Shown here one piece after another: positions 2,614 through 51,182 of a stretch of 64,000 bases of DNA (positions are counted from its first letter, which is position 1; every line of letters starts with the position of its first letter). The stretch is taken from the NCBI GenBank assembly GCA_027858615.1, contig JAQICJ010000286.1, positions 1,926-65,925 of the forward strand, written 5' to 3'. The position numbers were made by a program, and so were the translations under genes. This DNA is from Deltaproteobacteria bacterium (GTDB lineage: Bacteria; Myxococcota_A; Polyangia; HGW-17). The notes beneath the pieces were generated by a model that worked only from the letters and a program-made list of their open reading frames with translations, ran no database searches and was not told the origin of the DNA.

Positions 2614-4536
2614 ATGATCAAGTTCCAAATAATCGAGGGCGAACAAAGTGGTGAATGTTTTGAGAGCGATGAAGCTGTATTTACTATAGGTAGAATTGAC
2701 AATAATGATTTTTCATTAAGTGATTATCACATCAGTAGTGAACATGCTCAGGTATTTTGGGAAGACAATCAATACATCTTTAAAGATTTGAGATCCACAA
2801 ACGGTTCGGTGATAAAAAGGGGAGAGGATCTGTTTACTGTGAATGGAGCCCATCATTGGGAACTACCTTTGCAGCAAGGAGACAGACTGCTGTTGGGAGC
2901 ACCTCATTCTCCAGTAATTATAGAATGCAAAAAAGTTGCCAGCCCTTCTTTTGTTGATGAATCCGATAAAAAAACAAAAGTGGTTCTGGCACGAGATAAA
3001 AGCCAATTGGAGACCTTCCAGGAAAAAGCACTGGATGACCATAATCTTGCTAGAATCATGTACAGAATGGTACAGACAATTGGTAAAAGTGGACTCAGGT
3101 TGTCAGATGTTCTGGACAATGTTGCCAAAGCTGTTTTTGAATTGATCAAATTATCTACCAATGTTTCCATTTATTTAAAAAACAGATCAAATCGATTCAA
3201 ATTAAAATATTCCTGTTCCAGGCAGGGCAAAGAACAGTCCAATGGGTCAAGATCTGTTATCAGACTTGTATTAAAGCGTAAACAAGCCGTTGTTGTAGCT
3301 GATGCTCCAGAAGTTCTTTCCGATTCAGAATCAATTCTGGCGGCTGATATCAAGTCGGTTATCGCTGTTCCTTTCTGGCACAAAGGAAAAATCAGCGGGA
3401 TTTTGCAATGTGATAACCGGGGTAGTAATGGAATTTTTTCCGAAAAAGAGCTGGAGTATCTTACTCTGCTCAGTTATCAGGCGAATCTTGCAATTCAAAA
3501 TGCCCGTTATTTTGGACAGTTGGAACAAAAAGAAAAACAAGTAGAATCAGAGAATTACTACCTCAAAAAAAACCGGAATATTTTCACTTTCAACGATATC
3601 ATCGGTGAATCAGATGAAATGCATAAAATATTCGAACAATTGAAGAAAGTTCTGGACACCAGAGTTTCCATCCACATCTGGGGAGAAACAGGGACCGGAA
3701 AAGAATTGATTGCCTCTTCCATTCATTATCAGAGCAAGAGAAAAGACAAAATGTTCGTAGCTCAGAATTGTGCTGCTTTACCGGAAAATTTGCTGGAAAG
3801 CGAATTATTTGGTCATGAAAAAGGCTCTTTTACCGGAGCTGACCGTAAAAAGAAGGGATTGTTCGAAATTTCAGATGGAGGAACCCTGTTCCTTGATGAA
3901 ATAGCTGATATGTCACCCTCATTACAGGTTAAGCTTTTGAGAGTGCTTCAGGAGGGTGAAATAAGACCTGTTGGTTCCACTCAAGTAAAATATGTTGATG
4001 TTCGTATTATTTCAGCTACCCATAAAAATCTGGAAAAAGAAGTGGAAAATAATAATTTTAGAGAAGATCTTTTTTACAGGCTTCATGTTTTCCCCATTAA
4101 ATTACCGCCTTTAAGAGACAGGCAGGGAGATATAGAAATTCTGACCCGGCATTTTCTGGAAAAATTCAATCGAGAATTGAAAAAAGATGTTTCCATCTCA
4201 AAATGTGCTCTGGAAGAAATGAAGGGTTATAAATGGAAAGGAAATATCCGAGAGTTGGAAAATGAAGTCCAGCGTCTGGTTATATTGGCTGATTCCGAAG
4301 ATACTATCAAAACTGATAATCTCAGAGCTCATCAACGCAAGCAGACTTCGGTAATGGGTCGGAAGATGTATGATAAATCAAAAACCCTCAAGGAGTTGGT
4401 TGGGGAAGTTGAAAAAATAATTATCAGGCAAGCCATCAAAGACTCTGGTGGTAATAAAACAAACGCCGCCAAAAATCTGGGAATTACCAGAGAAGGATTA
4501 TACAAGAAGATCTCACGCTTCAACATGGAGTTATAG
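2614..4536 (+). CDS. sigma-54-dependent transcriptional activator with N-terminal FHA domain, central GAF-like domain, AAA+ sigma54-interaction domain and C-terminal Fis-type HTH
   Basis: FHA-like N-terminus (FTIGR..NDFSLSDYHISSEHAQVF...STNGS). Walker A GETGTGKE, ESELFGHEKGSFTGA (GAFTGA-type) motif, and C-terminal NAAKNLGITREGLYKKI helix-turn-helix. Confidence 0.85.
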   Translation: MIKFQIIEGEQSGECFESDEAVFTIGRIDNNDFSLSDYHISSEHAQVFWEDNQYIFKDLRSTNGSVIKRGEDLFTVNGAHHWELPLQQGDRLLLGAPHSPVIIECKKVASPSFVDESDKKTKVVLARDKSQLETFQEKALDDHNLARIMYRMVQTIGKSGLRLSDVLDNVAKAVFELIKLSTNVSIYLKNRSNRFKLKYSCSRQGKEQSNGSRSVIRLVLKRKQAVVVADAPEVLSDSESILAADIKSVIAVPFWHKGKISGILQCDNRGSNGIFSEKELEYLTLLSYQANLAIQNARYFGQLEQKEKQVESENYYLKKNRNIFTFNDIIGESDEMHKIFEQLKKVLDTRVSIHIWGETGTGKELIASSIHYQSKRKDKMFVAQNCAALPENLLESELFGHEKGSFTGADRKKKGLFEISDGGTLFLDEIADMSPSLQVKLLRVLQEGEIRPVGSTQVKYVDVRIISATHKNLEKEVENNNFREDLFYRLHVFPIKLPPLRDRQGDIEILTRHFLEKFNRELKKDVSISKCALEEMKGYKWKGNIRELENEVQRLVILADSEDTIKTDNLRAHQRKQTSVMGRKMYDKSKTLKELVGEVEKIIIRQAIKDSGGNKTNAAKNLGITREGLYKKISRFNMEL

Positions 4537-5553
4537 ATTTTTGAAAATTCCTGGGATTTTTGTCTGACAGAAGTTGCATCTGCCCTGATCGTCAATATTC
4601 AATTCGGGAACTGCATAACCGTTACGTTCAATTATAGTTTTATGACAGGAGGGACAAAGAGTGTTTTCGCTGTTTTCAAGCTTGATATTACCCGTATAGA
4701 CAAAGTTAAGACCTTGTTCTCTGGCAATATTGACTGCTTCAATCATTTTTTCAACAGGAGTGGCAGGGCGATGATATTTGTAAACAGGAAAATATCTGCT
4801 GAAATGGATGGGAATATTGGGAGAGAGAGAAGCAACAAAGGAACTAAGATCTTTTAATTGGGCAGAGTCATCGTTGATACCGGGAACAATGAGAGTGGTA
4901 ATTTCGACCCAGACTCCGTTATTATGCAGAAGCTCAATGGTTCTGGCTGCATGTTTATAACTCAAGCCGGTGTATTTAGAGGTTAATTTGCTGTCAAAAC
5001 CTTTGAGATCGATATTGGCTGCATCGAGAAAAGGAATAAGTTCCTGCAGTGGTTCAGGGTTGATAGCACCATTGCTCACCCAGATGTTCATTATCTCGTT
5101 TTTTTTGGCTAATTTTGCAATCGCAAGGCTATACTCGTAAAAAACAGTGGGTTCGGTATAGGTGGCTGCAATCATTGGCAGGGAGTTTTTACGAGCTTTT
5201 GCGACTATTGCAGCAGGTTCCGCGCTGGCACCCGGAAGAGGTCTGATTGAATGCTGTCGGGGCCATTGAGCGATATCTGAATTTTGACACCAGTGGCAGC
5301 TAAGATTGCAGCCGCTGGTGGCAAAAGAAAGAATGCTCTGTCCGGGCAGGACGTGGTAAAGGGGCTTTTTTTCTATGGGATCAGAGCCCATAGAAAGGAG
5401 GCGACCCCATGTTTGGGTGTATAATTTGCCCATAATGTTTTTGCGTACTTTGCACAGACCGTATTCATCTGGTTTGATAATACAATTGAAGGGACAAAGT
5501 TCGCATTTTACTATGTTTTTATTGAGTTCAGAAAAGTATTTTGCCAGTTTCAT
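4531..5553 (-). CDS. radical SAM enzyme, AmmeMemoRadiSam-system type (PflA-like activase superfamily), paralog 1
   Basis: N-terminal Cys cluster CELCPFNC...GLC, then DPIEKKPLYHVLPGQS and GCNLSCHWCQN (CxxxCxxC) radical SAM motif. The start overlaps the plsB stop by 26 nt. Confidence 0.75.
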   Translation of the reverse strand: MKLAKYFSELNKNIVKCELCPFNCIIKPDEYGLCKVRKNIMGKLYTQTWGRLLSMGSDPIEKKPLYHVLPGQSILSFATSGCNLSCHWCQNSDIAQWPRQHSIRPLPGASAEPAAIVAKARKNSLPMIAATYTEPTVFYEYSLAIAKLAKKNEIMNIWVSNGAINPEPLQELIPFLDAANIDLKGFDSKLTSKYTGLSYKHAARTIELLHNNGVWVEITTLIVPGINDDSAQLKDLSSFVASLSPNIPIHFSRYFPVYKYHRPATPVEKMIEAVNIAREQGLNFVYTGNIKLENSENTLCPSCHKTIIERNGYAVPELNIDDQGRCNFCQTKIPGIFKNL

Positions 5554-8047
5554 TTTTTTTGATCATTTTATGTTGTAGATGGTAGTTATGGAGAAATTTC
5601 TCCCTGTTCCTGATAAAATCATCAATTTCATCAGCAAAATTGAGGGTAGTTATTTTTTTAGCGGAAGATATTTTCAATAAATCGTTGTCGATCATGAGAT
5701 TAATGGTTTCGATAAAAATGGATTTATTAAAGGATTCAAAGCGGAAATGACGATTTTCAAGGATGTTGAAAGCATTTTTCTGGATGGCTTTAACCAGTTC
5801 CTTTTTTGCTGCTTCCTTGTTTTTATTGAAATACTTTCTGAGACAGAAAGCAGTAAGCAGTTGTCCTTCCAGAAATTCCAGGATCAAACTGGAAAGATTA
5901 GCCAACTCAAACTTGGAAAATTGGGTAAGAAAATTAAATTCTTCTGGAAAAGATGCATAATCTCCATCTGTCAGATAAGGAAATTCTCTTCTCAAGCATG
6001 TGCGCAGTAATTGATAATCGCTTTCCAGATTTTCATTTTCTGCGATAATTGCTGCTGCAGCTATTGCAGGTTTGATAACTGTTTGCAAAAAACCGTTCTT
6101 GTAATATGAAAGTTTAACCCTTTTATCTGACTCAACCTGGATTCTGTCTCCATCTTTTTTGATGATATTATTGAAACCCTTGAGGGAACGTCTGAATCTG
6201 CGCAGAAGTTGATTTTGATTTTTGATGGTTTTAGCCAAAATCAGGTTTCTGGCGGCAGCAATTTTATGAAAAGATTGGTAAATGGAAAAAATATCATAGG
6301 AATTGAAGGTATTTGAACTGGAAGACAAAAGAGCTGCACCGGTAAGCATACTGCTGGTGATGGTGGTATTTTGCACAATATTATGAGTAATTTTCAAAGA
6401 GAGTTGATGGATTTTTTCTTTGAATTCAGAGGAAGCTGGATCTATATTGCCGAGATAGTTTTTCATATCAAAGGGCTGTGCTACCCTGATGTGAACTCTG
6501 CCGTATCTGTTTAACAAAACACTGGCTGATTTCAATACCTGAAAAAAATCTTCACTCTTTTTTTCCTTGCCAAAATTTTCAATTTGATAACTGTCTTCTT
6601 CAATTACTTTTTCATAGCCTATGGTGATGGGAACAATCTGGGGAGAAGGCAGAGGCCTTTGCAGTAAAAGTTTGCCAATCATAGACAGAAGTCCGAATTT
6701 GGGATAAACAGCTTTTCCGGTTCTGGATCTGGTTCCTTCAATGAAAAATTCAATATTGACTCCCAATTTTAACAACTCGGTTATGTATTCAAGCAGAACT
6801 TGTTTGTAAAGTTTTTTGCCTTTGAAGGAACGTCTGATGAAAAAAGCTCCTCCCATCCTGAAGATTGCGCCCATAGGGAAGAAGGAAAGATTCTGTCCCG
6901 CAGCTATGTGGGGAATGGGCAGATGGTATTTATCCATCAACCAGGAAATCAACAGATAATCCACATGACTGCGGTGGCAGGGAATAAGAATAAGGGGACC
7001 TCTGGTGGAATATTCCCGCATTTTTTCAAAACCTTTATCATCAAGTTCAAAACCTTTGAAAATACGGTGCCAGATAAACGTAAGGGCGTATTTGTAAAAA
7101 GCCAGAGTAGTTTTGGTGGGAGCAGCCGGGATTTCACGGATGGCACTTTGTATCTCTTTGAGAGCTTTTTCGGGATCTGTACCTTCGTCAATGGTTTGGA
7201 AATATAATTTGGTTATATTTTCATTTTTATTGAGATTATGCTGAATTTTGCCTAGAGAAGGCAATTTGGGACCCAGGGTCAATTTCCATTCTTTTTCGAT
7301 AGCCTCAACCAGAAGATCGTAGAGATGATCAGCTTTGTCAGCAAAATTTTGATTGGTGTTTCCCAAAATGAAACTGCTGATATTTAAAGGAGGGGCAATT
7401 CTGATCATGGGTTGGAAAAGGGAAGAAAAAACCTGCAAGACTCCTCTGATATTTGTAGGTTTTTCCTGCTGACCAATATATTTATCCACGAATTCTTTGA
7501 AAGCATTGCTGTTTCGGGTTCCACTACGATCCCACACCGGAATGACCGGCAGGGCGACGATTTCTTTTTGTGGGGCATTTTTGTTGAGGCTGGAGATAAG
7601 GTTGAGTAAAACTTCATCTCCAGTTTTTTTCTGTTCGGGTTCAAAGATGTTTTTAATGGTGTAAAGACTTATCAGCGCAGGTTTTCCAGCAAGCAGATCA
7701 TCGCTGATCAATTTTAATTGATGTTCCTTATCGAATTTAAAAAGATGCTTGCCCAGGAACGCCCCCATTTTTTTTAAAGGATTAAGAAAGAACGGGTTTT
7801 CCGGGAAAATATGATCAGGCAGTGGTAGTTTTTCGTTCACCAGGATCTGTCTGAAAAGAGAATAATCCACCAGATTTTTAGTTCCAAAAACATAAAGAAC
7901 AGTGAAATTATCATTAATTTCTTTGAGTTTTTTAAGATCTTTATCTTTAAGATCAACTCGTTCATAGAGGGGAGAAAGAATAGTTTTTTGAATTTCTCTA
8001 TTGCTTTTTGCAAAATTTTTTAAAAATGAATTTAGTAATTTTTCCAT
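5528..8047 (-). CDS. plsB: glycerol-3-phosphate acyltransferase PlsB
   Basis: About 840 aa with the HxxxxD acyltransferase block CHRSHVDYLLISW, GGAFFIRRSFKG and FIEGTRSRTGK, as in E. coli PlsB. Confidence 0.85.
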   Translation of the reverse strand: MEKLLNSFLKNFAKSNREIQKTILSPLYERVDLKDKDLKKLKEINDNFTVLYVFGTKNLVDYSLFRQILVNEKLPLPDHIFPENPFFLNPLKKMGAFLGKHLFKFDKEHQLKLISDDLLAGKPALISLYTIKNIFEPEQKKTGDEVLLNLISSLNKNAPQKEIVALPVIPVWDRSGTRNSNAFKEFVDKYIGQQEKPTNIRGVLQVFSSLFQPMIRIAPPLNISSFILGNTNQNFADKADHLYDLLVEAIEKEWKLTLGPKLPSLGKIQHNLNKNENITKLYFQTIDEGTDPEKALKEIQSAIREIPAAPTKTTLAFYKYALTFIWHRIFKGFELDDKGFEKMREYSTRGPLILIPCHRSHVDYLLISWLMDKYHLPIPHIAAGQNLSFFPMGAIFRMGGAFFIRRSFKGKKLYKQVLLEYITELLKLGVNIEFFIEGTRSRTGKAVYPKFGLLSMIGKLLLQRPLPSPQIVPITIGYEKVIEEDSYQIENFGKEKKSEDFFQVLKSASVLLNRYGRVHIRVAQPFDMKNYLGNIDPASSEFKEKIHQLSLKITHNIVQNTTITSSMLTGAALLSSSSNTFNSYDIFSIYQSFHKIAAARNLILAKTIKNQNQLLRRFRRSLKGFNNIIKKDGDRIQVESDKRVKLSYYKNGFLQTVIKPAIAAAAIIAENENLESDYQLLRTCLRREFPYLTDGDYASFPEEFNFLTQFSKFELANLSSLILEFLEGQLLTAFCLRKYFNKNKEAAKKELVKAIQKNAFNILENRHFRFESFNKSIFIETINLMIDNDLLKISSAKKITTLNFADEIDDFIRNREKFLHNYHLQHKMIKKNETGKILF

Positions 8048-18450: not shown

Positions 18451-18525
18451 CTGAAAAGAGACGGAAACTAGTTAGTTCCCATACCAGAATGGGGGTTTTT
18501 GGCTGAAAAGAGACGGGAACTATTT
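18451..18525. repeat. short copy of the dispersed TIR element (TTAGTTCCC..CCAGAATGGG / GACGGGAACTAtTT), flanked by a 23-bp direct repeat CTGAAAAGAGACGG(G)AACTAgTT
   Basis: Read directly from the sequence. The TAG stop of the DsbA-like gene 18520..19584 lies inside the element. Confidence 0.7.
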
Positions 18526-19584
18526 AGCAGTTTTTTCTTTCATTATGGTTTCTACACAGTTGGTAAACTGATCACAGGTGATATCTTTTTTTGAACATTG
18601 CAACATAATATCAAAAACAAGGGGTTTTTGTTGAAGACTGCACTTTTTAATGAACACCTCCTTGATTTTTTTAATTTCCTTGTTCAGTATTCTTTTATCA
18701 AGGGGTTTTTCGTAAACCAATTTTCCGTGATCAACTAGCTTTTCATAAATATTTTCAGGTTTGATTCCTTTACTGGCCAATTTTTTGGATTCTGTCAGGC
18801 TCATTGCAATCAACTGAACAATATTTTGATTTCTTTCCAGTTTTTTTCCGTTGATAAATAGGGTTGGAGTGGCATTAACTTTGATCTGGTTGCCAAATTT
18901 TACCTCTTTTTCGATTATGGGATAATTTTTGTTGGCCTCAAGGTTTTTGCGATATTTCTTGATGTTGATACCCAGTTTTTTCAGGACAGGCTTCAAAGAT
19001 TTTACTTCCAGGCTTTTATTTGGATCAAATTTGTTTTTCCCTTTGGTTTTAGCCATCAGAAAATCCTCAGAAAATTGCTCTTGATTGTGAAAGAGAACAT
19101 CATGCATGGTCCAATATGCATCATTGCCTTTTTGGCGATTAACTTCGAGAGCAGCCTGAGCCGCCAGATTAGCAAAAACATGATAATTCAGGGGGAAATT
19201 CTTTAAAACAAGTTTGATTTTACCTTTGTATTTCTTAAGCAGTTTTGGAAGGATATTCAAACTCCAGTAACGGCAGGCGGGACATTGGTAATCGGTAAAT
19301 TCAACAATGGTGACCGGGGCGTTTTTATTGCCTTTCCAGGGGGAATTGCCAACTTTTACATTATAAATATCGGTAGTGGTTTTAATAAAGCAGTCATGAT
19401 GCCTTTTAAAAAGCTGTTTACAGGTTGTTTTATCTTTTTTGTTTTCGACCTGTTTTTTATTTTCTTTATTCAGTAAATTCTTTCCCAAATCTTTATCTTC
19501 TTTATCTTCTTTGTCTGGAATTGTTTTTTGACTGTTACAGGAACTTAGAATAAAAAATAAAAAAATCAAATACTTAAAACGCAT
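18520..19584 (-). CDS. DsbA/thioredoxin-fold thiol:disulfide oxidoreductase lipoprotein (paralog 1) with Cys-rich C-terminal extension
   Basis: Lipobox FILSSC, CxxC active site YQCPACRY in a DsbA-like context, and C-terminal C..C..C..C tail. Confidence 0.75.
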   Translation of the reverse strand: MRFKYLIFLFFILSSCNSQKTIPDKEDKEDKDLGKNLLNKENKKQVENKKDKTTCKQLFKRHHDCFIKTTTDIYNVKVGNSPWKGNKNAPVTIVEFTDYQCPACRYWSLNILPKLLKKYKGKIKLVLKNFPLNYHVFANLAAQAALEVNRQKGNDAYWTMHDVLFHNQEQFSEDFLMAKTKGKNKFDPNKSLEVKSLKPVLKKLGINIKKYRKNLEANKNYPIIEKEVKFGNQIKVNATPTLFINGKKLERNQNIVQLIAMSLTESKKLASKGIKPENIYEKLVDHGKLVYEKPLDKRILNKEIKKIKEVFIKKCSLQQKPLVFDIMLQCSKKDITCDQFTNCVETIMKEKTAK

Positions 19585-19630: not shown

Positions 19631-19651
19631 ACGGGAACTAGTTAGTTAGGG
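19631..19651. repeat. solo terminal-repeat fragment of the TIR element (ACGGGAACTAGTT AGTTAGGG)
   Basis: Matches the right end of the long copies. It supplies the TAG stop of gene 19638..20603. Confidence 0.55.
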
Positions 19652-20603
19652 TGTCCTTGATACAATTTTTGATGTCTGTACATTTATTACTTTTTTGGGC
19701 GCATTGGTGCAGAATGTAATAATAGTTGCCTTGGCTCATATTTTCGGAATTCGCTTTGCAATTCTCCAAGAATTTACTTTTGAATTGAGCCAGCTCTTTC
19801 TCAACAGTTTCTTTATCAAGTTTGCGCTTGAAAAAAGTCTTTTTGTGGTTGGTTATATAGTTGTAAATTTTATTTCTTGGAGTTCCTGCTTTGACCAGAT
19901 TGCCTGCGTATTCAATTTGAGCTTCAATCAATTTTTCCAACCCCTGATTTTCGAGTTTTATTCCATTGACGAAAATCCAGGGAGTTCCTTCCACTTTTAC
20001 CTTTTTTCCAAGATTGATATCACTTTTGACTAATTTGTCAGGAAGGTTTTCATCCAGTTTATTTTTTAATAGTTTGGGATTGATTCCCTGTTGTATTGCT
20101 GTTTTCAAAATAAAATTTTCATCCAGTTTGGTGCCGTTGGCAAAGATGATGTCGTGGTATTTCCAGAAAGCACCATTGCCTTTTTCCTTTTTGAGCACCA
20201 TTCCTACTTTGGAAGCAAAGAGGGCTTCGGCATGGTAGGAAAGGGGATAATTTTTAAATACTACTCGCAAATCTCCTGAATATTTATTTTCCAATATATT
20301 GAATTTGATCGCCATTTTGGAACAATAGGGACATTGAAAATCGGTAAATTCAACAATAGTGACCAGAGCATTGTTGCTGCCTTTAACCGGTGAATGATCC
20401 ACCGGAAGATTATAAATTTTCTGGGTCTGGCTGACAAAACATTTGCCATGTTCTGCAAAAAGAGATTTGCAGTTCAATTTATCCAGAACCGGTTTTGGCT
20501 GCGATTTCGAATTTTGTTCAGATCCTAGTTTGACGACTTCTTCATCTTCTTTACACGAAAGGAACAGATTTGATATTAGCAGCACCAAAAGCAGTTTTTT
20601 CAT
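19638..20603 (-). CDS. DsbA/thioredoxin-fold lipoprotein (paralog 2) with Cys-rich C-terminal extension
   Basis: Lipobox LFLSC, CxxC FQCPYCSK, and a Cys-rich C-terminal tail similar to paralog 1. Confidence 0.75.
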   Translation of the reverse strand: MKKLLLVLLISNLFLSCKEDEEVVKLGSEQNSKSQPKPVLDKLNCKSLFAEHGKCFVSQTQKIYNLPVDHSPVKGSNNALVTIVEFTDFQCPYCSKMAIKFNILENKYSGDLRVVFKNYPLSYHAEALFASKVGMVLKKEKGNGAFWKYHDIIFANGTKLDENFILKTAIQQGINPKLLKNKLDENLPDKLVKSDINLGKKVKVEGTPWIFVNGIKLENQGLEKLIEAQIEYAGNLVKAGTPRNKIYNYITNHKKTFFKRKLDKETVEKELAQFKSKFLENCKANSENMSQGNYYYILHQCAQKSNKCTDIKNCIKDTLTN

Positions 20604-42802: not shown

Positions 42803-43591
42803 ATGAAAACCAAATTACTTTCTATTCTCGCAATTTCAATATTTTTTGTTTTTGCTGGCTGCGATGACGATGAAGACAGCAACAACACCAACAACGTCAA
42901 TAATACCAACAACGTCAATAACACCAATAATGTCAATTGTGGCAATGATATAGTTGAAACCGATGAAGTATGTGACGGCACTGCTCTTGACGGTGAAGAT
43001 TGCACAACAATCGGCGATTATACCGGTGGTGAGCTTAATTGTGCAGCCGATTGCCTTTCCTTTGACGAATCAGCCTGTACTGCCAACACCAATAATGTTA
43101 ATTGTGGCAATGGTATAGTTGAAAGCGGTGAAGTATGTGACGGCACTGCTCTTGACGGTGAAGATTGCACAACAGTCGGCGATTATATCGGTGGCGAGCT
43201 TGACTGTGCAGACGATTGCCTTTCTTTTGACGAAGCAGCTTGTACTGCTGATGCTACTCCGACTCCCGACGGATTTGTCGGATCAAGTTGTACCGATGTG
43301 GCTGATTGTACAGAAGTTGCAGATGCTACAGGTCTTACTGCTGAATGTGTTGAACAATTATCCATGATCACTTTGCCGGACGGTTATTGCTCTTCAACAT
43401 GTGATGTAGCTGCCGATCCCGATCCATGCGGTGATGCTGGTGGTGAATGCGTAGATATCATGGGTATGTTCATCTATTGTTTGCAGCCATGTGTTGAGGG
43501 AAATGGCGAATGTCGTACAGGTTATCAGTGCGCTGCTTTATCCGAAGAAGCTGGTGCTCCCACCTATTGTCTCCCTCCCTTAGGTGTGTAA
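42803..43591 (+). CDS. secreted cysteine-rich repeat lipoprotein (Myxococcus-type CGNG..E.CDG Cys-rich repeats)
   Basis: Lipobox FAGC, NTNNVN x3 low-complexity spacer, two near-identical repeats CGNGIVE.GEVCDGTALDGEDCTT.GDY.GGEL.CA.DCLSFDE..C, and a Cys-rich C-terminus. Locally more G+C-rich than its neighbours. Confidence 0.7.
   Translation: MKTKLLSILAISIFFVFAGCDDDEDSNNTNNVNNTNNVNNTNNVNCGNDIVETDEVCDGTALDGEDCTTIGDYTGGELNCAADCLSFDESACTANTNNVNCGNGIVESGEVCDGTALDGEDCTTVGDYIGGELDCADDCLSFDEAACTADATPTPDGFVGSSCTDVADCTEVADATGLTAECVEQLSMITLPDGYCSSTCDVAADPDPCGDAGGECVDIMGMFIYCLQPCVEGNGECRTGYQCAALSEEAGAPTYCLPPLGV
42935..43250 (+). repeat. two tandem direct repeats of about 165 bp (over 90% identical) inside the Cys-rich lipoprotein gene, preceded by three copies of an 18-bp unit (42893-42946)
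   Basis: Direct sequence comparison of 42935-43099 with 43100-43250. Confidence 0.85.
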
Positions 43592-43735: not shown

Positions 43736-44743
43736 TCAACTTCCGTCTGTTTCAGCCCAGATTCCGGGAATTTTGTGGTTGCAACCCGGGCATCTGCCTT
43801 TGGCAATCCGGTTGCTTTGTACCTTGTAGCCGTATCTTTCAATCAATATAGTTTGACATTGGGGACAGATGGTATTTTGATAACCTTGTCCCCGCAAATT
43901 TCCCAAATATACAAATTGAATCCCGTTGGATTTAGCGATGGTTCGGGCTTTAAGCAGAGTAGACACCGGAGTGGCGGGTAGATTGCGCAATTTATGGTGG
44001 GGAAAAAATCGGGATATATGCAAAGGTACTTCGGGACCTAATTCTTTGGTTATCCAACGGGTAAGCTGGTTAATTTTCTCTTCGCTGTCATTTTTACCGG
44101 GAATTATCAGAAAGGTGAGTTCGAGCCAAATACCCCTTTGTTTAAAAAGTTTTGCGGTTTCCAAAACCGGTTTTAACGTAGCCGAACAGATGTCCCGGTA
44201 GAATTTATCGCTGAAAGCTTTTAGATCAAGGTTGACAGCATCTATTGAAGGAATCGCTTTGAGCAGGGGCTGGCGATTGATGTAACCTGCTGTAATCCAG
44301 TAGTTCAACAGTCCGCGGCTTTTGGCCTTTTGGCCGATATCAAGGGCGTATTCGTAAAAAACCACGGGATCGGTATAGGTGAGAGCGATTCCCTGGCAGG
44401 ATTTTTTGAGAGCGGTGGTAACAACTTTCTCAGGGGAGATTTTATAAGCTTTTCTTTGCAGGGGAGAAACCTGGGAAAGACCGGCATTTTGGCAGTTGAG
44501 ACAATGAAGGTTGCAGCCGGTGGTGGCAATGGAGAAAGCTTTGGAGCCGGGCAGGACATGAAAAAGAGGCTTTTTTTCCACGGGATCGATGTGAACAGCG
44601 GCGGGTCGGCCATAGGTGAGAGCCAGCAATTTGCCGTTGTGGTTGTAACGGATACGGCAATCACCGGTTTCTCCCGGGGAAATTTTGCATAATTTGGGAC
44701 AAAGGTTGCAGGTAAGTTGTTTATTCATTGACATTTTTTTCAT
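43736..44743 (-). CDS. radical SAM enzyme, AmmeMemoRadiSam-system type, paralog 2 (ORF open to 44773; start probably one of the Met at 44743/44734/44728)
   Basis: CNLCPKLC...GDC N-terminal cluster, DPVEKKPLFHVLPGSK, GCNLHCLNCQN. It aligns along its length with paralog 1. Confidence 0.75.
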   Translation of the reverse strand: MKKMSMNKQLTCNLCPKLCKISPGETGDCRIRYNHNGKLLALTYGRPAAVHIDPVEKKPLFHVLPGSKAFSIATTGCNLHCLNCQNAGLSQVSPLQRKAYKISPEKVVTTALKKSCQGIALTYTDPVVFYEYALDIGQKAKSRGLLNYWITAGYINRQPLLKAIPSIDAVNLDLKAFSDKFYRDICSATLKPVLETAKLFKQRGIWLELTFLIIPGKNDSEEKINQLTRWITKELGPEVPLHISRFFPHHKLRNLPATPVSTLLKARTIAKSNGIQFVYLGNLRGQGYQNTICPQCQTILIERYGYKVQSNRIAKGRCPGCNHKIPGIWAETDGS

Positions 44744-44840
44744 AAAAAAGAGCTTCGTGTCCTGAAAGAACACCGCTTTTGACTGCTTTAATCAATTTGT
44801 TATCCTGTTTGGGGGTATTTTTATCGGTTGCTTTATTCAT
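44721..44840 (-). CDS. small ORF (about 39 aa, MNKATDKNTPKQDNKLIKAVKSGVLSGHEALFYEKNVNE) overlapping the rSAM start; possible coupled small protein. A longer 109-aa frame with a hydrophobic helix extends to 45050
   Basis: Its reading frame ends with TAA 8 nt inside the rSAM ATG region (ATGAATAA overlap). No homology recognised. Confidence 0.25.
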   Translation of the reverse strand: MNKATDKNTPKQDNKLIKAVKSGVLSGHEALFYEKNVNE

Positions 44841-45190
44841 GTTTGCTTTAACAGACCCGGTGCCATTGCGAGAAAAGATAGTCAGATTGGAATAATTGCA
44901 AAAAATGAGAATGAGATAGAGAACAACAAAAACCACCGAGATGCCAATTTGAAATTTATGCAAAGAAAAGGATTTTTGTGAATACATGCCAAAAATATAG
45001 CAAAAAAAAAAACAATTGAAAGTTCTTTGCTTTTTAGTTGTACTAATCAACTAATGTGAAAAAATTAGCAAAAAACTTTGCAAGTTTTGGTTCAGCTTGT
45101 TTTAGATCAATATTTATGGCAAGTTCAAGAATATTAGTTTGAAAGAGAACCAACTGCCAAAAATTAATCGAGTACAAGGAGAAAATAATC

Positions 45191-46608: not shown

Positions 46609-49600
46609 ATGACCGCAAAGACAACAAGTTCCAAAAAGGATAACTTTTTTTCCGATACGATCGATAGTACCAAATCAATTCTGATTGATTTCAAAAATTT
46701 TGCCTTTTCCGGTTTCAGTCCCACCCAAATTGTTCGCAACTTAATGGGGTTGACAATTTTGATCGTTTTTTTCAGCATAGTGCTGGGATATTCTTTCGAT
46801 CACAAAAGTGAACTCACCTCTTTTTTCTATTCTTTTTTTAAAACAATTTATTATTTTTCCGGTTTTATAGTTGTGTTCAAAATTATCCAATTGGCTTTCG
46901 GGAGAAAATTGAATTTTTCCAAAGAAAGTGTAGCGATACTTAACCTGCTGACTCTGGTGCTGGTTTTTCTGAGTTTCCTGGGAATAGGACTCTCTTTTTA
47001 CCAGACGGTACGATATTACCGCCTCTTTGTTGTTCCCAAGATTATTCTTCTCTACCCCGGTGCTTCTATTTTATTGGGGCTGACAGCAATAACCCTGATT
47101 TTTGAAAAAAAGATCAGAAAAAGTGTTTATAAAACTCCGTTGTTCATAATAATTGGTCTTTATGCCCTCTGGCTGCTGGTCAACATTTTTGTTTCCACCA
47201 TGCCTCTGGTTACTTTATTCGGTTCGGTGGTTCGTCAGATGGGAGTTATTTCCATCTGGTCAATGCTGATCATGGCTGTGGCCACTGCTCTTTGGTTGCG
47301 TGGTGATAAAAAGCGCTTCAAAATTATCTTCCACTTTGTCCTTTTTGTCGGCTTGCTCCTGTCTTTGCGTGCGTTTTACGAAATGACCAGAGTGGATGTC
47401 AGATCTTATCGTCCTTCAGGTTTTGCCGGTAATCCCGATTATTATGCCAATAACCTTGTTTTTACGGTTATTTTTTCCCTTTTTGCTTTTCTTCAGTCCC
47501 GTCGTAATAAACTGGAATCAATTTTCACCGGCCTGGTTTTCATGGCCGGTTTTTATGCTCTGGTTCTCAGCAGAACCAGAGGAGCCTGGCTGGGGCTCGG
47601 ATTTGCCAGTACTATCGGCATGTTTGCTTTCAATCCTGCAAAATTTCTCACCCTCAGGGAAATTCGCTGGAAACTTGCTGCTATTTTGGCAATGATTGTT
47701 GCCGGTTTTCTTTTGTATTACTTTTATATTGGCTCGGTTCTACCTCCCGACGGAGCTAAAGCTTCTTTGATAAAACAAGCTCAGCAGGTCATGGCCAGAC
47801 GGGTCAGCAATTCTATTTTCGTTTTTCTAACCATAGTTCCCATTTTGGCTCGACTGCTCTGGAACTCCTTTGCCAAAATCAAGTTGCGTCTTTCGATTTT
47901 CGGTAGTCTGATGCTGGTTTTTTCCCTTTTCCTGGTAATTCCCCAAACCAGAAAACCAATTTTCGGTCTGGTGGACAAGGCTTTGAGTGTTCGCCGCATT
48001 CTCGATCCCAAACATGGTGAACCTAGATTGAAGTTATGGGAAGATACCCTGCCCATGATAGCTGATCACTGGTTTTTGGGAGTAGGTCGCGAAACGTACA
48101 GAGTCAATTTTCTCCAGTACAAAACCTTCGATCTGGCCTACAGGGATCCGGGAGTAAATTACCGATCCTCCCATAATATGTTCGTCGATCAGGTTGTTAT
48201 GGAGGGTTTCCCCGGAATTATCTTCTTTCTTTTAATTATGGGAATGGGAATCTGGCTCATTTTTGTGCGCAATCGCAAGGACAAAGAAGATTCTCAGACA
48301 GGACTGCTTCTCACGGGAGTAGGGTTGGCCGTCTTTGGTTATCTTGGTCATTCCCTTACCATTTATGATGTTTTGCCTTCTTCAGCCTATATTTATCTAA
48401 GTCTGGGCATGGCTCTGGGTATGGCAGCTCCACGGCTGGTCAAGGCCGGCAGAAAAAACCGTAAAAAATCCCAAATTCCCAAAAGGTGGAATCTTAAATA
48501 TCTGTACAAGGCAGTGGCGATTGGAACGGTCATTGCAATTATAACAATTCCCGCTGTTTATTATGTAAGCCGGCATCACTATGCAGATAAATATCTTTCT
48601 CAATTATCCTATGCATCCGGTGCCCTCAAGCAATTTCGCAGTTCACTGGGAAATAAATACAAAGTGGATAAAAATATGAAAAGTGCCAGGGCTTCCAGCA
48701 CTATTCTGCTCAAATCCAATCCCTCCGAACGCCATCTCAACCAGATTGCCAAAAATTACAAAATTCCCCGTAAAAATCTTAACAACCCCAAATTGCGTCG
48801 CCGCTACGCCATCTCCATCAGCAACAGAATCAAAAAACAACAACATCTTGTGGACAATGTAATTATCCCCAATATCAAAAAAGTTTTGAAATATGCAAAG
48901 AAGGTCAAAGAGTACGATCCCGGTCTTGGTTATCATCCATATATGATCGGGCATTTGGGACAGGTGCTCATGCAGTACCAGAGTTACGGAATAGGAATGA
49001 CCGGAGATAAACTCCATGAATTTCTTCTGAATTCTTCTCGCAGGGGAGTGCACAACAACACCAATCCTGAAAGTGCTTATTCCCGACTGGCCAGTGGTTA
49101 TTATGCTGTTGCCACTTATCATTTCAATAAGCGAAATTACCAAAAGGCTTGGGAAAATTATCAAAAAGCGCTGGAGGCGGTACAAGGCTCCATCAATCAT
49201 GATCGCCTTTATTACGACACCCATCGTATCAAATCCATTTTTCTTTTGCGTAAATTCTGTGAAATTGAAAAGGCCGAGGAAGAACTGAACAAAGCCAAGA
49301 ATGTTCTGATTAACTCCATTATGGGTCGTTATCATAAGGTTCTGCAAACCTATTCTCCCATGTATTTCAAAATAGCTCTTGCCTATTTTGAGCGAGCCCA
49401 ATCCGGCCCAAACCAAAAAAAGGTAGCTGATTTTATAAATGTAGTTCGAGTTCTGGGCACAATTTCTCAGGTTGAACAATTTCTCAATCAGAAAAAAATT
49501 GATAAAAACCGGAAAAAAATTGAAAAAATACAAAAACCTCTCAACAGGATAGAAACCAGATTGAAAGCTTTAAAAACCAGAGTTGATGGTAAAAATCTCG

Positions 49601-49914
49601 CTAATTATCTTAGCCAGATCAACCGGTTGGAAAGCAAAGGAAAAGATCTGCAAAAGGAATTAGTCGAAAAGTCCAAAAAAGATGAAGCTTTGTTAAGAAG
49701 AATGGGAGTAATTAAAAAAACTGCTACCGGAACAGATAAAATAAAAACAGAGCTCAAAGCACTTGCCAAAGACCAGAATCCGGATAACCGGGTTTTGGCC
49801 ACCTATAAAAAGAAGATAGAAAAACTTTTTCGAGTTTTCCCGGGCCAGAGATCTTCCAAACTATATTCCACCTGCCGGAGAAACCTTGAACTTATGAAAG
49901 GAGCAGCCAAGTGA
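46609..49914 (+). CDS. O-antigen ligase (Wzy_C/WaaL-like) multi-pass membrane domain fused to a roughly 500-aa C-terminal TPR-like domain
   Basis: About 10 TM helices with SRTRGAWLG and HNMFVDQVVMEGFPG motifs (WaaL/PglL-like H-N-x-x motif). C-terminal helical-repeat region. Start is 2 nt after the glnA stop, and the stop overlaps the purA start. Confidence 0.6.
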   Translation: MTAKTTSSKKDNFFSDTIDSTKSILIDFKNFAFSGFSPTQIVRNLMGLTILIVFFSIVLGYSFDHKSELTSFFYSFFKTIYYFSGFIVVFKIIQLAFGRKLNFSKESVAILNLLTLVLVFLSFLGIGLSFYQTVRYYRLFVVPKIILLYPGASILLGLTAITLIFEKKIRKSVYKTPLFIIIGLYALWLLVNIFVSTMPLVTLFGSVVRQMGVISIWSMLIMAVATALWLRGDKKRFKIIFHFVLFVGLLLSLRAFYEMTRVDVRSYRPSGFAGNPDYYANNLVFTVIFSLFAFLQSRRNKLESIFTGLVFMAGFYALVLSRTRGAWLGLGFASTIGMFAFNPAKFLTLREIRWKLAAILAMIVAGFLLYYFYIGSVLPPDGAKASLIKQAQQVMARRVSNSIFVFLTIVPILARLLWNSFAKIKLRLSIFGSLMLVFSLFLVIPQTRKPIFGLVDKALSVRRILDPKHGEPRLKLWEDTLPMIADHWFLGVGRETYRVNFLQYKTFDLAYRDPGVNYRSSHNMFVDQVVMEGFPGIIFFLLIMGMGIWLIFVRNRKDKEDSQTGLLLTGVGLAVFGYLGHSLTIYDVLPSSAYIYLSLGMALGMAAPRLVKAGRKNRKKSQIPKRWNLKYLYKAVAIGTVIAIITIPAVYYVSRHHYADKYLSQLSYASGALKQFRSSLGNKYKVDKNMKSARASSTILLKSNPSERHLNQIAKNYKIPRKNLNNPKLRRRYAISISNRIKKQQHLVDNVIIPNIKKVLKYAKKVKEYDPGLGYHPYMIGHLGQVLMQYQSYGIGMTGDKLHEFLLNSSRRGVHNNTNPESAYSRLASGYYAVATYHFNKRNYQKAWENYQKALEAVQGSINHDRLYYDTHRIKSIFLLRKFCEIEKAEEELNKAKNVLINSIMGRYHKVLQTYSPMYFKIALAYFERAQSGPNQKKVADFINVVRVLGTISQVEQFLNQKKIDKNRKKIEKIQKPLNRIETRLKALKTRVDGKNLANYLSQINRLESKGKDLQKELVEKSKKDEALLRRMGVIKKTATGTDKIKTELKALAKDQNPDNRVLATYKKKIEKLFRVFPGQRSSKLYSTCRRNLELMKGAAK

Positions 49915-51182
49915 CGGTAACTATTGCGTTGGGCTTACAGTGGGGCGACGAAGGCAAGGGAAAAATGGTCGATTATCTTTCTGAAACAGCTGATTTGGTT
50001 ATAAGGGCAGCTGGGGGAGCTAATGCCGGCCATACTATTGTTAATAATGATAAAAAATATATTCTCCATCATCTTCCTTCGGGGCTTATTCATGCTCACG
50101 CCCGAGCTTATCTTGCCTCCGGCATGGTTATCGATCCTTTCTCTCTGCTCAAAGAAATTAAAGGCATAGAACAACAGGGTCTGAGCGATCTGCGCAACCG
50201 AATTCAGATTTCGCCGGCTGCTCATCTGATTTTACCCTGGCACCGGGACCTGGAAAAGATCAGGGAAAAAAGCCCCGGCGCCATTGGAACAACTCTCAAG
50301 GGAATCGGACCCGCCTACGAAAGCAGAGCTTCCCGCAAGGGATTGCCCCTGGCTCTGCTGAAATACCCCGATCTCCTCAAGCAAAAGCTCAGTTCAATAT
50401 TTCAAGAATTTGCTCCATTTTTCGAAAAATTCGAAGTTTCAGTGGATTCGGTGGATGAAGTCCATGCTCAACTTCTACAGGTAGCCCGGGAAATTGTCCC
50501 TCTCCTTGGAGATTTGCAACCCCTGCTGGATAAATATATCCAACCAGACGACAACAATGAAATTATCCTGGAAGGTGCTCAGGGTGCTTTGCTTGACATT
50601 AATCACGGCACCTATCCCTATGTTACCTCTTCCTCCACTATTTCCGGGGGTTTGCTCTCCGGAACCGGAATAGGCCCTTTAAAGATAGATAAAGCTGTGG
50701 GGATAATGAAAGCTTATACCACTAGAGTCGGCAATGGACCTTTCCCTACTGAAATTCAAGGAAAAGCCGGTGAAAAAATGGGAAAAATCGGGGGTGAATT
50801 TGGTGCCACCACCGGAAGACCTCGTCGCTGTGGTTGGCTTGATCTTGTTGCATTAAAGTATGCAGTTAATTTGACAGGAGTGAAGGATCTGGTCATAACC
50901 AAAATTGATGTACTTTCAGATTTCGAGAAGGTAAAAGTTTGTACTGCCTATAAACTTCCTGATGGAACAAGCAGCAGTTTTTTTCCCGAGGATCCCTGGA
51001 TTCTGGAGAAATGCAGACCAGTATATAAAACTTTTCCTTCATGGAATATTTCAGGAAGTCTCACCGTTGATAATATAGATCCGGCTCTACAAGCTTTTAT
51101 TGACATGATAGAAAAATACACTGGAGCCCGAGTTTCCTTTTTATCCTGGGGACCCCAGCGCCATAAAACACTCAGGGTTTAA
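49911..51182 (+). CDS. purA: adenylosuccinate synthetase
   Basis: GTG start. QWGDEGKGK P-loop, GHT, GTTGRGIGP-like TLKGIGPAYE, and ATTGRPRRCGWLD motifs. Confidence 0.95.
   Translation: MTVTIALGLQWGDEGKGKMVDYLSETADLVIRAAGGANAGHTIVNNDKKYILHHLPSGLIHAHARAYLASGMVIDPFSLLKEIKGIEQQGLSDLRNRIQISPAAHLILPWHRDLEKIREKSPGAIGTTLKGIGPAYESRASRKGLPLALLKYPDLLKQKLSSIFQEFAPFFEKFEVSVDSVDEVHAQLLQVAREIVPLLGDLQPLLDKYIQPDDNNEIILEGAQGALLDINHGTYPYVTSSSTISGGLLSGTGIGPLKIDKAVGIMKAYTTRVGNGPFPTEIQGKAGEKMGKIGGEFGATTGRPRRCGWLDLVALKYAVNLTGVKDLVITKIDVLSDFEKVKVCTAYKLPDGTSSSFFPEDPWILEKCRPVYKTFPSWNISGSLTVDNIDPALQAFIDMIEKYTGARVSFLSWGPQRHKTLRV

Follow-up and report, generated by a model that had tools for sequence, protein, structure and literature searches.

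The window analyzed here, a 64,000-nt stretch of contig JAQICJ010000286.1 from a Deltaproteobacteria bacterium of the class Polyangia, carries on its reverse strand a gene for a radical S-adenosylmethionine (SAM) enzyme, overlapped at its start by a small open reading frame (ORF). With roughly even confidence we interpret this region as a two-gene, translationally coupled module, comprised of a membrane-anchored protein of 88 amino acids (aa) and a short-form AmrS enzyme. In the proposed mechanism, the small protein would supply in trans an N-terminal helix that short-form AmrS has lost: its tail, '...I..I..G.LS.HEALFY.K', would form a helix-turn-helix, the last helix would dock on AmrS, and docking would tether the enzyme to the membrane. 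In full systems, found in other genomes, AmrS would be held beside a giant NosR/NapH-like redox protein, a possible electron donor reducing the AmrS cluster. The proposal builds on data on the enzyme family, the reality of the small gene and purifying selection on it, its family membership, the gene neighborhoods, and the complementarity of the helix; as to a trans-supplied docking helix at the membrane, with tethering and electron supply, we consider the chances to be about balanced. The features of the module are:

43736..44743 (-): short-form AmrS gene, paralog 2; TIGR04337; Pfam Radical_SAM and Fer4_12
44721..44987 (-): small gene encoding an 88-aa predicted single-pass membrane protein; called by JGI and NCBI; ratio of nonsynonymous to synonymous substitution rates (dN/dS) 0.29
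44898..44948 (-): predicted transmembrane (TM) helix IGISVVFVVLYLILIFC, spanning residues 14-30 of the small protein; Kyte-Doolittle maximum 3.05; AlphaFold2 (AF2) helix at residues 13-32
44778-44810 (-): predicted helix KQDNKLIKAVK preceding the tail motif
44736..44774 (-): conserved C-terminal tail motif GVLSGHEALFYEK; family alignment; AF2 helix
44721..44728 (-): 8-nt overlap ATGAATAA between the small-gene stop and an amrS ATG, read directly from the sequence

The small gene and its overlap with amrS

The gene callers of both JGI and NCBI predict the 88-aa product. For verification we used L003 (loci are designated by L numbers), a Polyangia metagenome-assembled genome (JAWLEA010000001) of a different species, whose region is fully syntenic with the window; the window organism itself recurs in two JGI metagenomes at 98-99% identity, and these near-identical copies are uninformative on conservation. 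The L003 small ORF likewise has exactly 88 codons with no indels, while the intergenic DNA directly upstream has indels, and the two proteins are 74% identical. The dN/dS ratio of the small gene is 0.29 (20 synonymous differences per 56 sites, 27 nonsynonymous per 208 sites), versus 1.1 and 1.5 in the alternative frames, which also contain 3-11 stops. As the length is kept free of indels, the proteins are similar and only the annotated frame shows a low ratio, this is not a chance ORF but a real gene under purifying selection, conserved in a related genome as the initial annotation of this DNA had required of it. The AmrS encoded next to it is 91% identical between the window and L003, with dN/dS of 0.08.

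The ORF of paralog 2 at its longest spans 43736..44773(-), with a GTG start at 44773, and two internal ATG codons are conserved in L003: one at 44743 (MKKMSMNKQLTC; MKKMSMNKQ), giving 335 aa and called by JGI, and the other at 44728 (MNKQLTC), giving 330 aa. One of these two is likely the translational start. The small ORF runs for 88 aa from the ATG at 44987 to the TAA at 44721-44723, and hence overlaps amrS by 8 nt if translation begins at 44728, and by 23 nt if it begins at 44743. The overlap suggested in the initial annotation is thus real, and its length of 8 nt holds for ATG 44728, but not for ATG 44743, as the earlier coordinates mixed two start codons; nor did the length of 39 aa given there for the small ORF survive. 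The methionine of the 39-aa version ('MNKATDK') is replaced by leucine in L003, hence this version is not the gene. The 8-nt geometry fits translational coupling of the small gene and amrS. Scans for promoters and terminators yielded 5 promoter-like sites versus 3.6 expected, and no terminators.

AmrS enzymes of the window

A genomic neighborhood of AMMECR1, a radical SAM enzyme and a ring-opening-dioxygenase (Memo-type) protein was noted by Balaji and Aravind (2007; PMC2034487), and the three-gene neighborhood is cited as "Memo-Ammecr1 systems" in PMC7159879. The corresponding AmmeMemoRadiSam families are TIGR04335 (AmrA/AMMECR1), TIGR04336 (AmrB/Memo), and TIGR04337 (AmrS); literature searches found no functional study establishing the chemistry of the system.

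By family models, both radical SAM paralogs of the window belong to AmrS, with paralog 2 scoring 371.1 bits and paralog 1 scoring 326 bits against the TIGR04337 cutoff of 220. The second enzyme lies outside the two-gene module and serves here as context:

4531..5553 (-): paralog 1, long-form AmrS with the N-terminal helix MKLAKYFSELN; TIGR04337, 326 bits

For paralog 2, the glycyl-radical activase models remain below their cutoffs (56.2 versus 231.75 bits for TIGR02493 and 41.8 versus 174.35 bits for TIGR02494), and the other radical SAM families in NCBIfam, including MoaA, score far under theirs. Its Pfam matches are Radical_SAM and Fer4_12 and nothing else; SPASM/twitch and RRE domains were found neither with Pfam nor with NCBIfam, and no NCBIfam maturase of ribosomally synthesized and post-translationally modified peptides (RiPPs) matched. 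The enzyme has the radical SAM motif CX3CX2C as CNLHCLNC at 44492-44515 (C77/C81/C84), an N-terminal four-cysteine motif C-x2-C-x3-C-x9-C (C12/C15/C19/C29), and a C-terminal CPQC...CPGC motif (C293/C296/C318/C321), and all three sets of cysteine columns are invariant across 67 AmrS homologs.

The initial annotation had described paralog 2 as sharing its motif set with paralog 1, and we indeed find the cysteine motifs, with 42.5% identity over 332 aa (E 8e-93). Its view of the pair as a duplication with diverged substrates can be kept as far as the two are of distinct kinds. Paralog 1 is by sequence a long-form and paralog 2 a short-form AmrS, placed on separate branches, and the pair is not a recent duplication. 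At its start, the gene of paralog 1 shares 26 nt with the end of a gene at 5528-8047(-) for a PlsB-like glycerol-3-phosphate acyltransferase (339 bits, under the equivalog cutoff), and a gene for a GAF/FHA sigma-54 activator converges on its stop.

The AF2 model of paralog 2 has a predicted local distance difference test score (pLDDT) above 90 over the core, and its best fold match in the PDB, where no solved AmrS structure was found, is the activase PflA (Foldseek E 2e-14; TM-score 0.82 normalised to target). Glycyl-radical activases (PflA, TIGR02493; PDB 3c8f, 3cb8, 8fo0) are thus the closest solved fold and yield weak sequence matches to AmrS, whereas AmrS has in addition the N-terminal four-cysteine motif and a zinc-ribbon-like CxxC...CxxC at the C-terminus. 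No glycyl-radical enzyme gene was found among the window ORFs scanned.

An overlap of a small ORF with the start of a radical SAM gene is also what is seen with RiPP maturases (SkfB, MftC, PqqE), and the region had initially been described as a RiPP-like or maturase-like arrangement. This description we abandon: the enzyme is an AmmeMemoRadiSam protein resembling PflA-type activases, it has no SPASM/twitch or RRE domain, and SkfB (6efn) is a distant fold match at rank 21. Unlike in RiPP systems, the small protein is predicted to be anchored by a TM helix, and its conserved part matches the N-terminus of long-form AmrS.

Compared with the AmmeMemoRadiSam system as known, the window differs in that AmrA (AMMECR1) and AmrB (Memo) were not found in its 64 kb by ORF scans and tblastn, although related short-form loci have both, encoded as Memo-AMMECR1 fusions. 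The short-form branch also differs in lacking the N-terminal helix and in having the small membrane protein and, elsewhere, a giant protein and an ORF with a twin-arginine translocation (Tat) signal.

An N-terminal helix in cis or, as proposed, in trans

When 33 AmrS loci of other genomes were searched by permissive tblastn with the small ORF as query, weak matches recurrently hit the opening codons of the AmrS genes themselves, in frame. Most AmrS proteins more distant from paralog 2 begin with 'MKEAMFYEKLE..v.C.LC', that is, an N-terminal helix 'K-E-A-M/L-F-Y-E-K' precedes the N-terminal cysteine motif in the long form. The small ORF of the window ends with '...GHEALFYEKNVNE' just before its stop codon and directly ahead of 'C.LCP' of paralog 2, in a different frame. 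Of the 120 closest homologs of paralog 2, none has an in-frame KEAMFY motif, and in 116 the first cysteine is at residues 4-9. Moreover, when every ORF of the long-form loci was searched with a hidden Markov model (HMM) of the tail only, the model hit the very N-terminus of 11-12 AmrS proteins, each time through HMM positions 26-34; these termini make up less than 0.1% of the residues searched, and such concentration is far beyond chance.

Structural models agree with this correspondence. In the AF2 model of a chain joining the small protein to paralog 2, residues 60-70 and 77-89 are helical (pLDDT 73-82) and the linker is disordered; a beta-strand in the tail motif was considered and dropped, as AF2 predicts a helix there. 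In paralog 1, residues 2-11 (KLAKYFSELN) are predicted to be helical, with pLDDT 79, and are followed by the cysteine hairpin, and in the joined chain, residues 77-89 (HEALFYEKNVNEM) form a helix at the equivalent position with pLDDT of about 82. The models thus suggest the same position and secondary structure of the helix, short of docking.

AmrS proteins from WOR-3/Stahlbacteria (380 aa; L006:5824-6966, L010:5824-6966, L013:3388-4530) have an N-terminal hydrophobic helix and a linker fused ahead of KEAMFYE. By sequence layout, they are the single-chain counterpart of the two genes of the window, without the PRDVD/G.LS part of the tail.

A family of small membrane proteins

The single-sequence homology search with the small protein retrieved only itself and the L003 ortholog, and an exhaustive HMMER search with a two-sequence profile (window and L003) found nothing beyond L003. 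The family was first detected through gene position and the motif, and later by a 12-member profile. Its members share one layout, in which a short N-terminus and one TM helix are followed by a variable linker of low complexity and then by a conserved tail with the consensus 'G.LS.[HK]EA.[FY]Y.[KR]', 4-18 residues from the stop; G72, S75, A79 and Y82 are invariant in the 12 members. A degenerate DNA pattern for G.LS.HEALFY matched 19 metagenome stretches, of which 5 contained true members and the remainder were chance matches, and a search with a pattern from the small-ORF alignment gave 218 matches, none of them confirmed by tblastn.

With the database-wide threshold of E<=1e-3, the 12-member profile retrieves about 60 distinct small hypothetical proteins of 57-149 aa, without Pfam domains, whose consensus is '...AGQPRDVDL..IR.LI..G.LSDHEALFY.K'. 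No Pfam or NCBIfam model covers the tail family. Among 1111 ORFs of the window, an HMM built without the window and L003 places the small ORF at the top (E 7.6e-6, against 0.27 for the runner-up), and the window tail is 69% identical over 16 aa to the C-terminus of a giant protein from L057. Judging by these profile matches, the small protein of the window belongs to this unnamed family as a divergent member, and the family itself is a previously unannotated, widely distributed accessory family.

At L064:9001-9264 (Omnitrophota), a gene that matches the tail family less strongly (E 4e-6) comes directly after one for a B12-binding radical SAM protein that is not AmrS. The family may therefore also serve other radical SAM enzymes.

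Gene neighborhoods of short-form amrS

Immediately upstream of short-form amrS, and overlapping it, the small gene is found in the window, L003, L004, L036/L037, L040, and L041/L042. In the window and in L003 the frame offset between the two genes is +1; the other loci are:

L004 (Elusimicrobiota): small ORF of 96 aa, 8-nt overlap with amrS, offset +1
L036/L037 (Myxococcota): small ORF of 96 aa, 4-nt overlap with amrS, offset +2 in L036
L040: small ORF of 67 aa, 11-nt overlap with amrS, offset +1
L041/L042: small ORF of 88 aa, 4-nt overlap with amrS, offset +2 in L041

These junctions bear on the explanation that the small ORF is the 5' end of an amrS gene, split off by a frameshift and now decaying, or else rejoined to amrS through transcriptional slippage or programmed +1 frameshifting at the A-run GAAAAAAA. 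This would account for an AmrS N-terminal motif in a +1-shifted frame directly upstream of amrS, beside an A7 run, and TM-anchored single-chain AmrS do occur in WOR-3/Stahlbacteria. However, the small ORF is under purifying selection; the A7 run is A6C in L003, with the frame arrangement unchanged; the offset is +2 in two lineages versus +1 in four, with 4- or 11-nt overlaps without a slippery run; and in most full operons the tail family is encoded several kilobases from amrS. We consider a frameshift origin very improbable. As the A-run is not kept, frame offsets differ, and distal copies exist, the small gene is a separate, translationally coupled cistron.

In L036 (4988-6157) and L041 (2038-2232), a gene for a lipoprotein of an unknown family, containing '...TDWTYQLD.S...LTLWTTP.THR', follows amrS on the same strand, overlapping it in L041, and a gene for a PEGA-domain protein is located divergently upstream.

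A full operon is observed in nine loci and consists of short-form amrS (about 323 aa), a Memo-AMMECR1 (AmrBA) fusion matching TIGR04336 and TIGR04335, and a giant membrane protein, with the tail coming last. The giant protein, about 1180-1320 aa long, has a spermidine-synthase-like domain, MFS-like helices, an RnfG-type FMN_bind domain and a NapH/NosR-type Fer4_5 region, and no Pfam or NCBIfam model describes it as a whole. Its genes are located as follows:

L004: 2233-5730
L047
L057: 913-4821
L062: 5355-9008
L065: 5445-9011
L066: 12691-16656
L067: 15372-19316

The tail is a separate gene overlapping the end of the giant gene in L005, L047, L054, L055, L062, L063 and L065, and is fused in frame to the giant C-terminus in L031, L057, L066 and L067. 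L004, with the gene order amrBA-giant-small-amrS, bridges this arrangement and the one in which small-amrS stands alone, as in the available flanks of the window, L003, L036, L040 and L041. Every locus encoding the giant protein has a short-form AmrS. L066 and L067 were chosen without reference to the tail, and both carry it; L038 and L033 have no tail, their flanks being cut by contig ends. In L065, a gene for the ApbE flavin transferase adjoins the operon.

Moreover, eight full operons have a second conserved small ORF (about 50-67 aa), which encodes the twin-arginine signal RRxF[LI]K and either overlaps the amrS stop or lies shortly after it:

L005: 6963
L031: 6990
L062: 3551
L065: 3699-3902
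L066: 10974-11162
L067: 10956-11159
L063: about 3650
L004: about 6975

Three of these ORFs score above the TIGR01409 cutoff, and their conserved C-terminus is '..YPG.V.PLD....G.W.G' up to the stop; the L004 ORF (50 aa) ends with 'LKEADFYKKHDLSG' instead and carries 'LKEADFYKK'. No family model for this ORF was found in Pfam or NCBIfam. The parts of the extended operon occur in L004, L005, L031, L047, L062, L063, L065, L066 and L067, while the window and L003 have none of the giant protein, the signal-peptide AmrBA or the Tat-signal ORF; for the giant gene this holds throughout the 64 kb of the window.

An AmrS segment that, depending on lineage, is present in cis or encoded separately may be compared, as an analogy, to split or trans-complemented enzymes and to Tat "carrier" proteins (TIGR02811, formate dehydrogenase region TAT target). 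The 'KEADFYKK' of the L004 ORF is separately encoded, and AmrS proteins of Bacteroidales carry the motif in cis behind a Tat-like signal, which would parallel such carriers, unlike the window, which has no Tat-signal ORF.

The initial annotation proposed the small ORF as a precursor peptide or a partner of the enzyme, and looked to comparative genomics for co-occurrence. The partner role is favored by overlapping small genes in other phyla, where the small ORF does accompany the radical SAM gene, while the precursor role is disfavored by the TM anchor and by the likeness of the tail to the N-terminus of long-form AmrS. If the small protein were nevertheless the substrate of AmrS, modification of a tail residue (the invariant G, S, A or Y) would produce a membrane-anchored peptide or a protein-derived cofactor. 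The two genes are adjacent and translationally coupled, the activase PflA, the nearest solved fold, has a protein as its substrate, conservation of the C-terminal motif is strong, and in full systems the second small ORF, with its Tat signal, abuts amrS, so that small peptides cluster around the enzyme. We still regard a substrate role as unlikely. Long-form AmrS has the tail motif as its own N-terminus, and several lineages have the tail joined to a membrane protein of 1300 aa; the enzyme lacks SPASM/twitch and RRE domains, and no protease or exporter gene is nearby; and a TM anchor with a conserved C-terminus is unlike a conserved leader with a variable core.

Topology and the partner of the tail

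Several observations weigh against a small protein that docks on AmrS at the membrane. The motif shared by the tail and long-form AmrS spans only 8-9 residues, and the individual tail-HMM matches are insignificant (E 3-26). The concatenated-chain model informs on pLDDT and secondary structure rather than on contacts. The window protein is a divergent family member (22 bits), its PRDVD element being absent or degenerate, and for some N-terminally short AmrS (Desulfovibrionaceae type, L026, L028, L035) no tail gene could be detected in the vicinity. In the lineage of the window the membrane partner is hypothetical, since there is neither amrBA nor a giant gene within 64 kb. Finally, the tail is predicted to be periplasmic in the fused versions, which may conflict with an AmrS that has no signal peptide, and the free small proteins show a weak positive-inside bias.

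The topology of the fused versions is deduced as follows. In NapH and NosR the Fe-S domain is cytoplasmic. In the fused giant proteins one TM helix separates the Fe-S domain from the tail behind it, and the segment before this helix is strongly basic. With a NapH/NosR-like cytoplasmic Fe-S domain and one TM helix between, the tail would come to lie outside the cytoplasm.

This placement is what one would expect if the tail docks not on AmrS but on some other partner, for example, on an exported AmrB-AmrA at the periplasmic face. The helix of long-form AmrS would then be the interface between AmrS and AmrA/B, and the link seen in the window would reflect co-expression. The AmrBA fusions of the full operons carry signal peptides or lipoboxes, and the FMN_bind domain together with the adjacent ApbE gene suggests a periplasmic module. 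On the other hand, the small gene abuts amrS in five lineages, four of them without amrBA in the available flanks, and the complementarity of presence and absence concerns the N-terminus of AmrS, not AmrBA. To us another partner of the tail seems doubtful.

Some AmrS enzymes themselves may be exported, as is suggested by Tat-like signals in their sequences. In Bacteroidales (L007:4786, L008:4780, L012:3342) and Omnitrophota (L020:5878), the signals SKRDFLK, SKREFIK and SRKAFLK stand with a hydrophobic region ahead of the KEALFY helix, and the Bacteroidales loci contain two tandem amrS paralogs, one with the Tat-like signal and the other without it. Together with the Tat-signal ORF after amrS, the exported Memo-AMMECR1 and the outward tail, these signals lead to a reading in which short-form systems are extracytoplasmic, with AmrS exported by Tat and docked by the tail beside an electron source; the giant protein, with its NosR-like transmembrane path from cytoplasmic Fe-S to periplasmic flavin mononucleotide (FMN) and its MFS-like part, would suit it. 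The module of the window would then be a reduced remnant. We deem such an arrangement rather unlikely. As it has none of the extra parts, the window does not decide between AmrBA docking and an extracytoplasmic system.

The convergent lipoprotein gene and other genes of the window

Beyond the amrS stop, a lipoprotein gene approaches from the opposite strand:

42803..43591 (+): Cys-rich repeat lipoprotein gene, convergent; lipobox FAGC; two Cys-rich repeats of about 55 aa

The initial annotation had linked this protein to the radical SAM enzyme; both the convergent orientation and the tandem repeats were described correctly, with the gap between the lipoprotein gene and the radical SAM stop being 144 nt rather than 145. 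A role of the lipoprotein as a substrate or partner of the enzyme might be read from this 144-nt convergent arrangement, which is kept in L003; however, all genes of the region are syntenic in L003, the two genes are separate transcription units, and the lipoprotein is exported. Moreover, among more than 60 loci with AmrS genes, tblastn finds the lipoprotein only in L001-L003, comprising near-identical strains and one close relative, so that the expected co-occurrence does not extend to the Cys-rich protein. Such a role is extremely improbable.

The lipoprotein has an N-terminal NNTNNV repeat tract, and its two repeats share 92% of their nucleotides; it has no match among the Pfam and NCBIfam families. 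In a 98%-identical strain (L001:1280-2095) it has 271 aa versus 262 aa in the window, hence the number of repeats varies between strains.

Elsewhere in the window, two adjacent genes at 18520-19584 and 19638-20603 (-) encode DsbA/thioredoxin-like proteins. A gene at 46609-49914 (+) encodes a membrane protein of 1101 aa that contains a Wzy_C (O-antigen ligase-like) domain and has a C-terminal region that is long and lysine-rich; the gene begins 3 nt past the stop of glnA, and its final 4 nt overlap the beginning of the next ORF (49911-51182).

Implications for the AmmeMemoRadiSam system

Conservation of AMMECR1 and MEMO1 extends as far as humans. One large branch of AmrS has lost its N-terminal helix, and a small membrane protein or the tail of a giant protein, carrying this helix, regularly accompanies the branch. 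A small ORF overlapping a radical SAM gene should thus not be annotated by default as a RiPP precursor. The new parts added here to the AmmeMemoRadiSam system offer a testable interaction, that of the tail with AmrS or of the tail with AmrB/A, and give a hint at the site of the enzyme, at the membrane and possibly outside the cytoplasm, and at its source of electrons. With moderate confidence, and with docking as the conjectural step, we suggest that the module reveals an N-terminal helix that is split off or supplied in trans, and with it a variant of the AmmeMemoRadiSam system that is extended and associated with the membrane.

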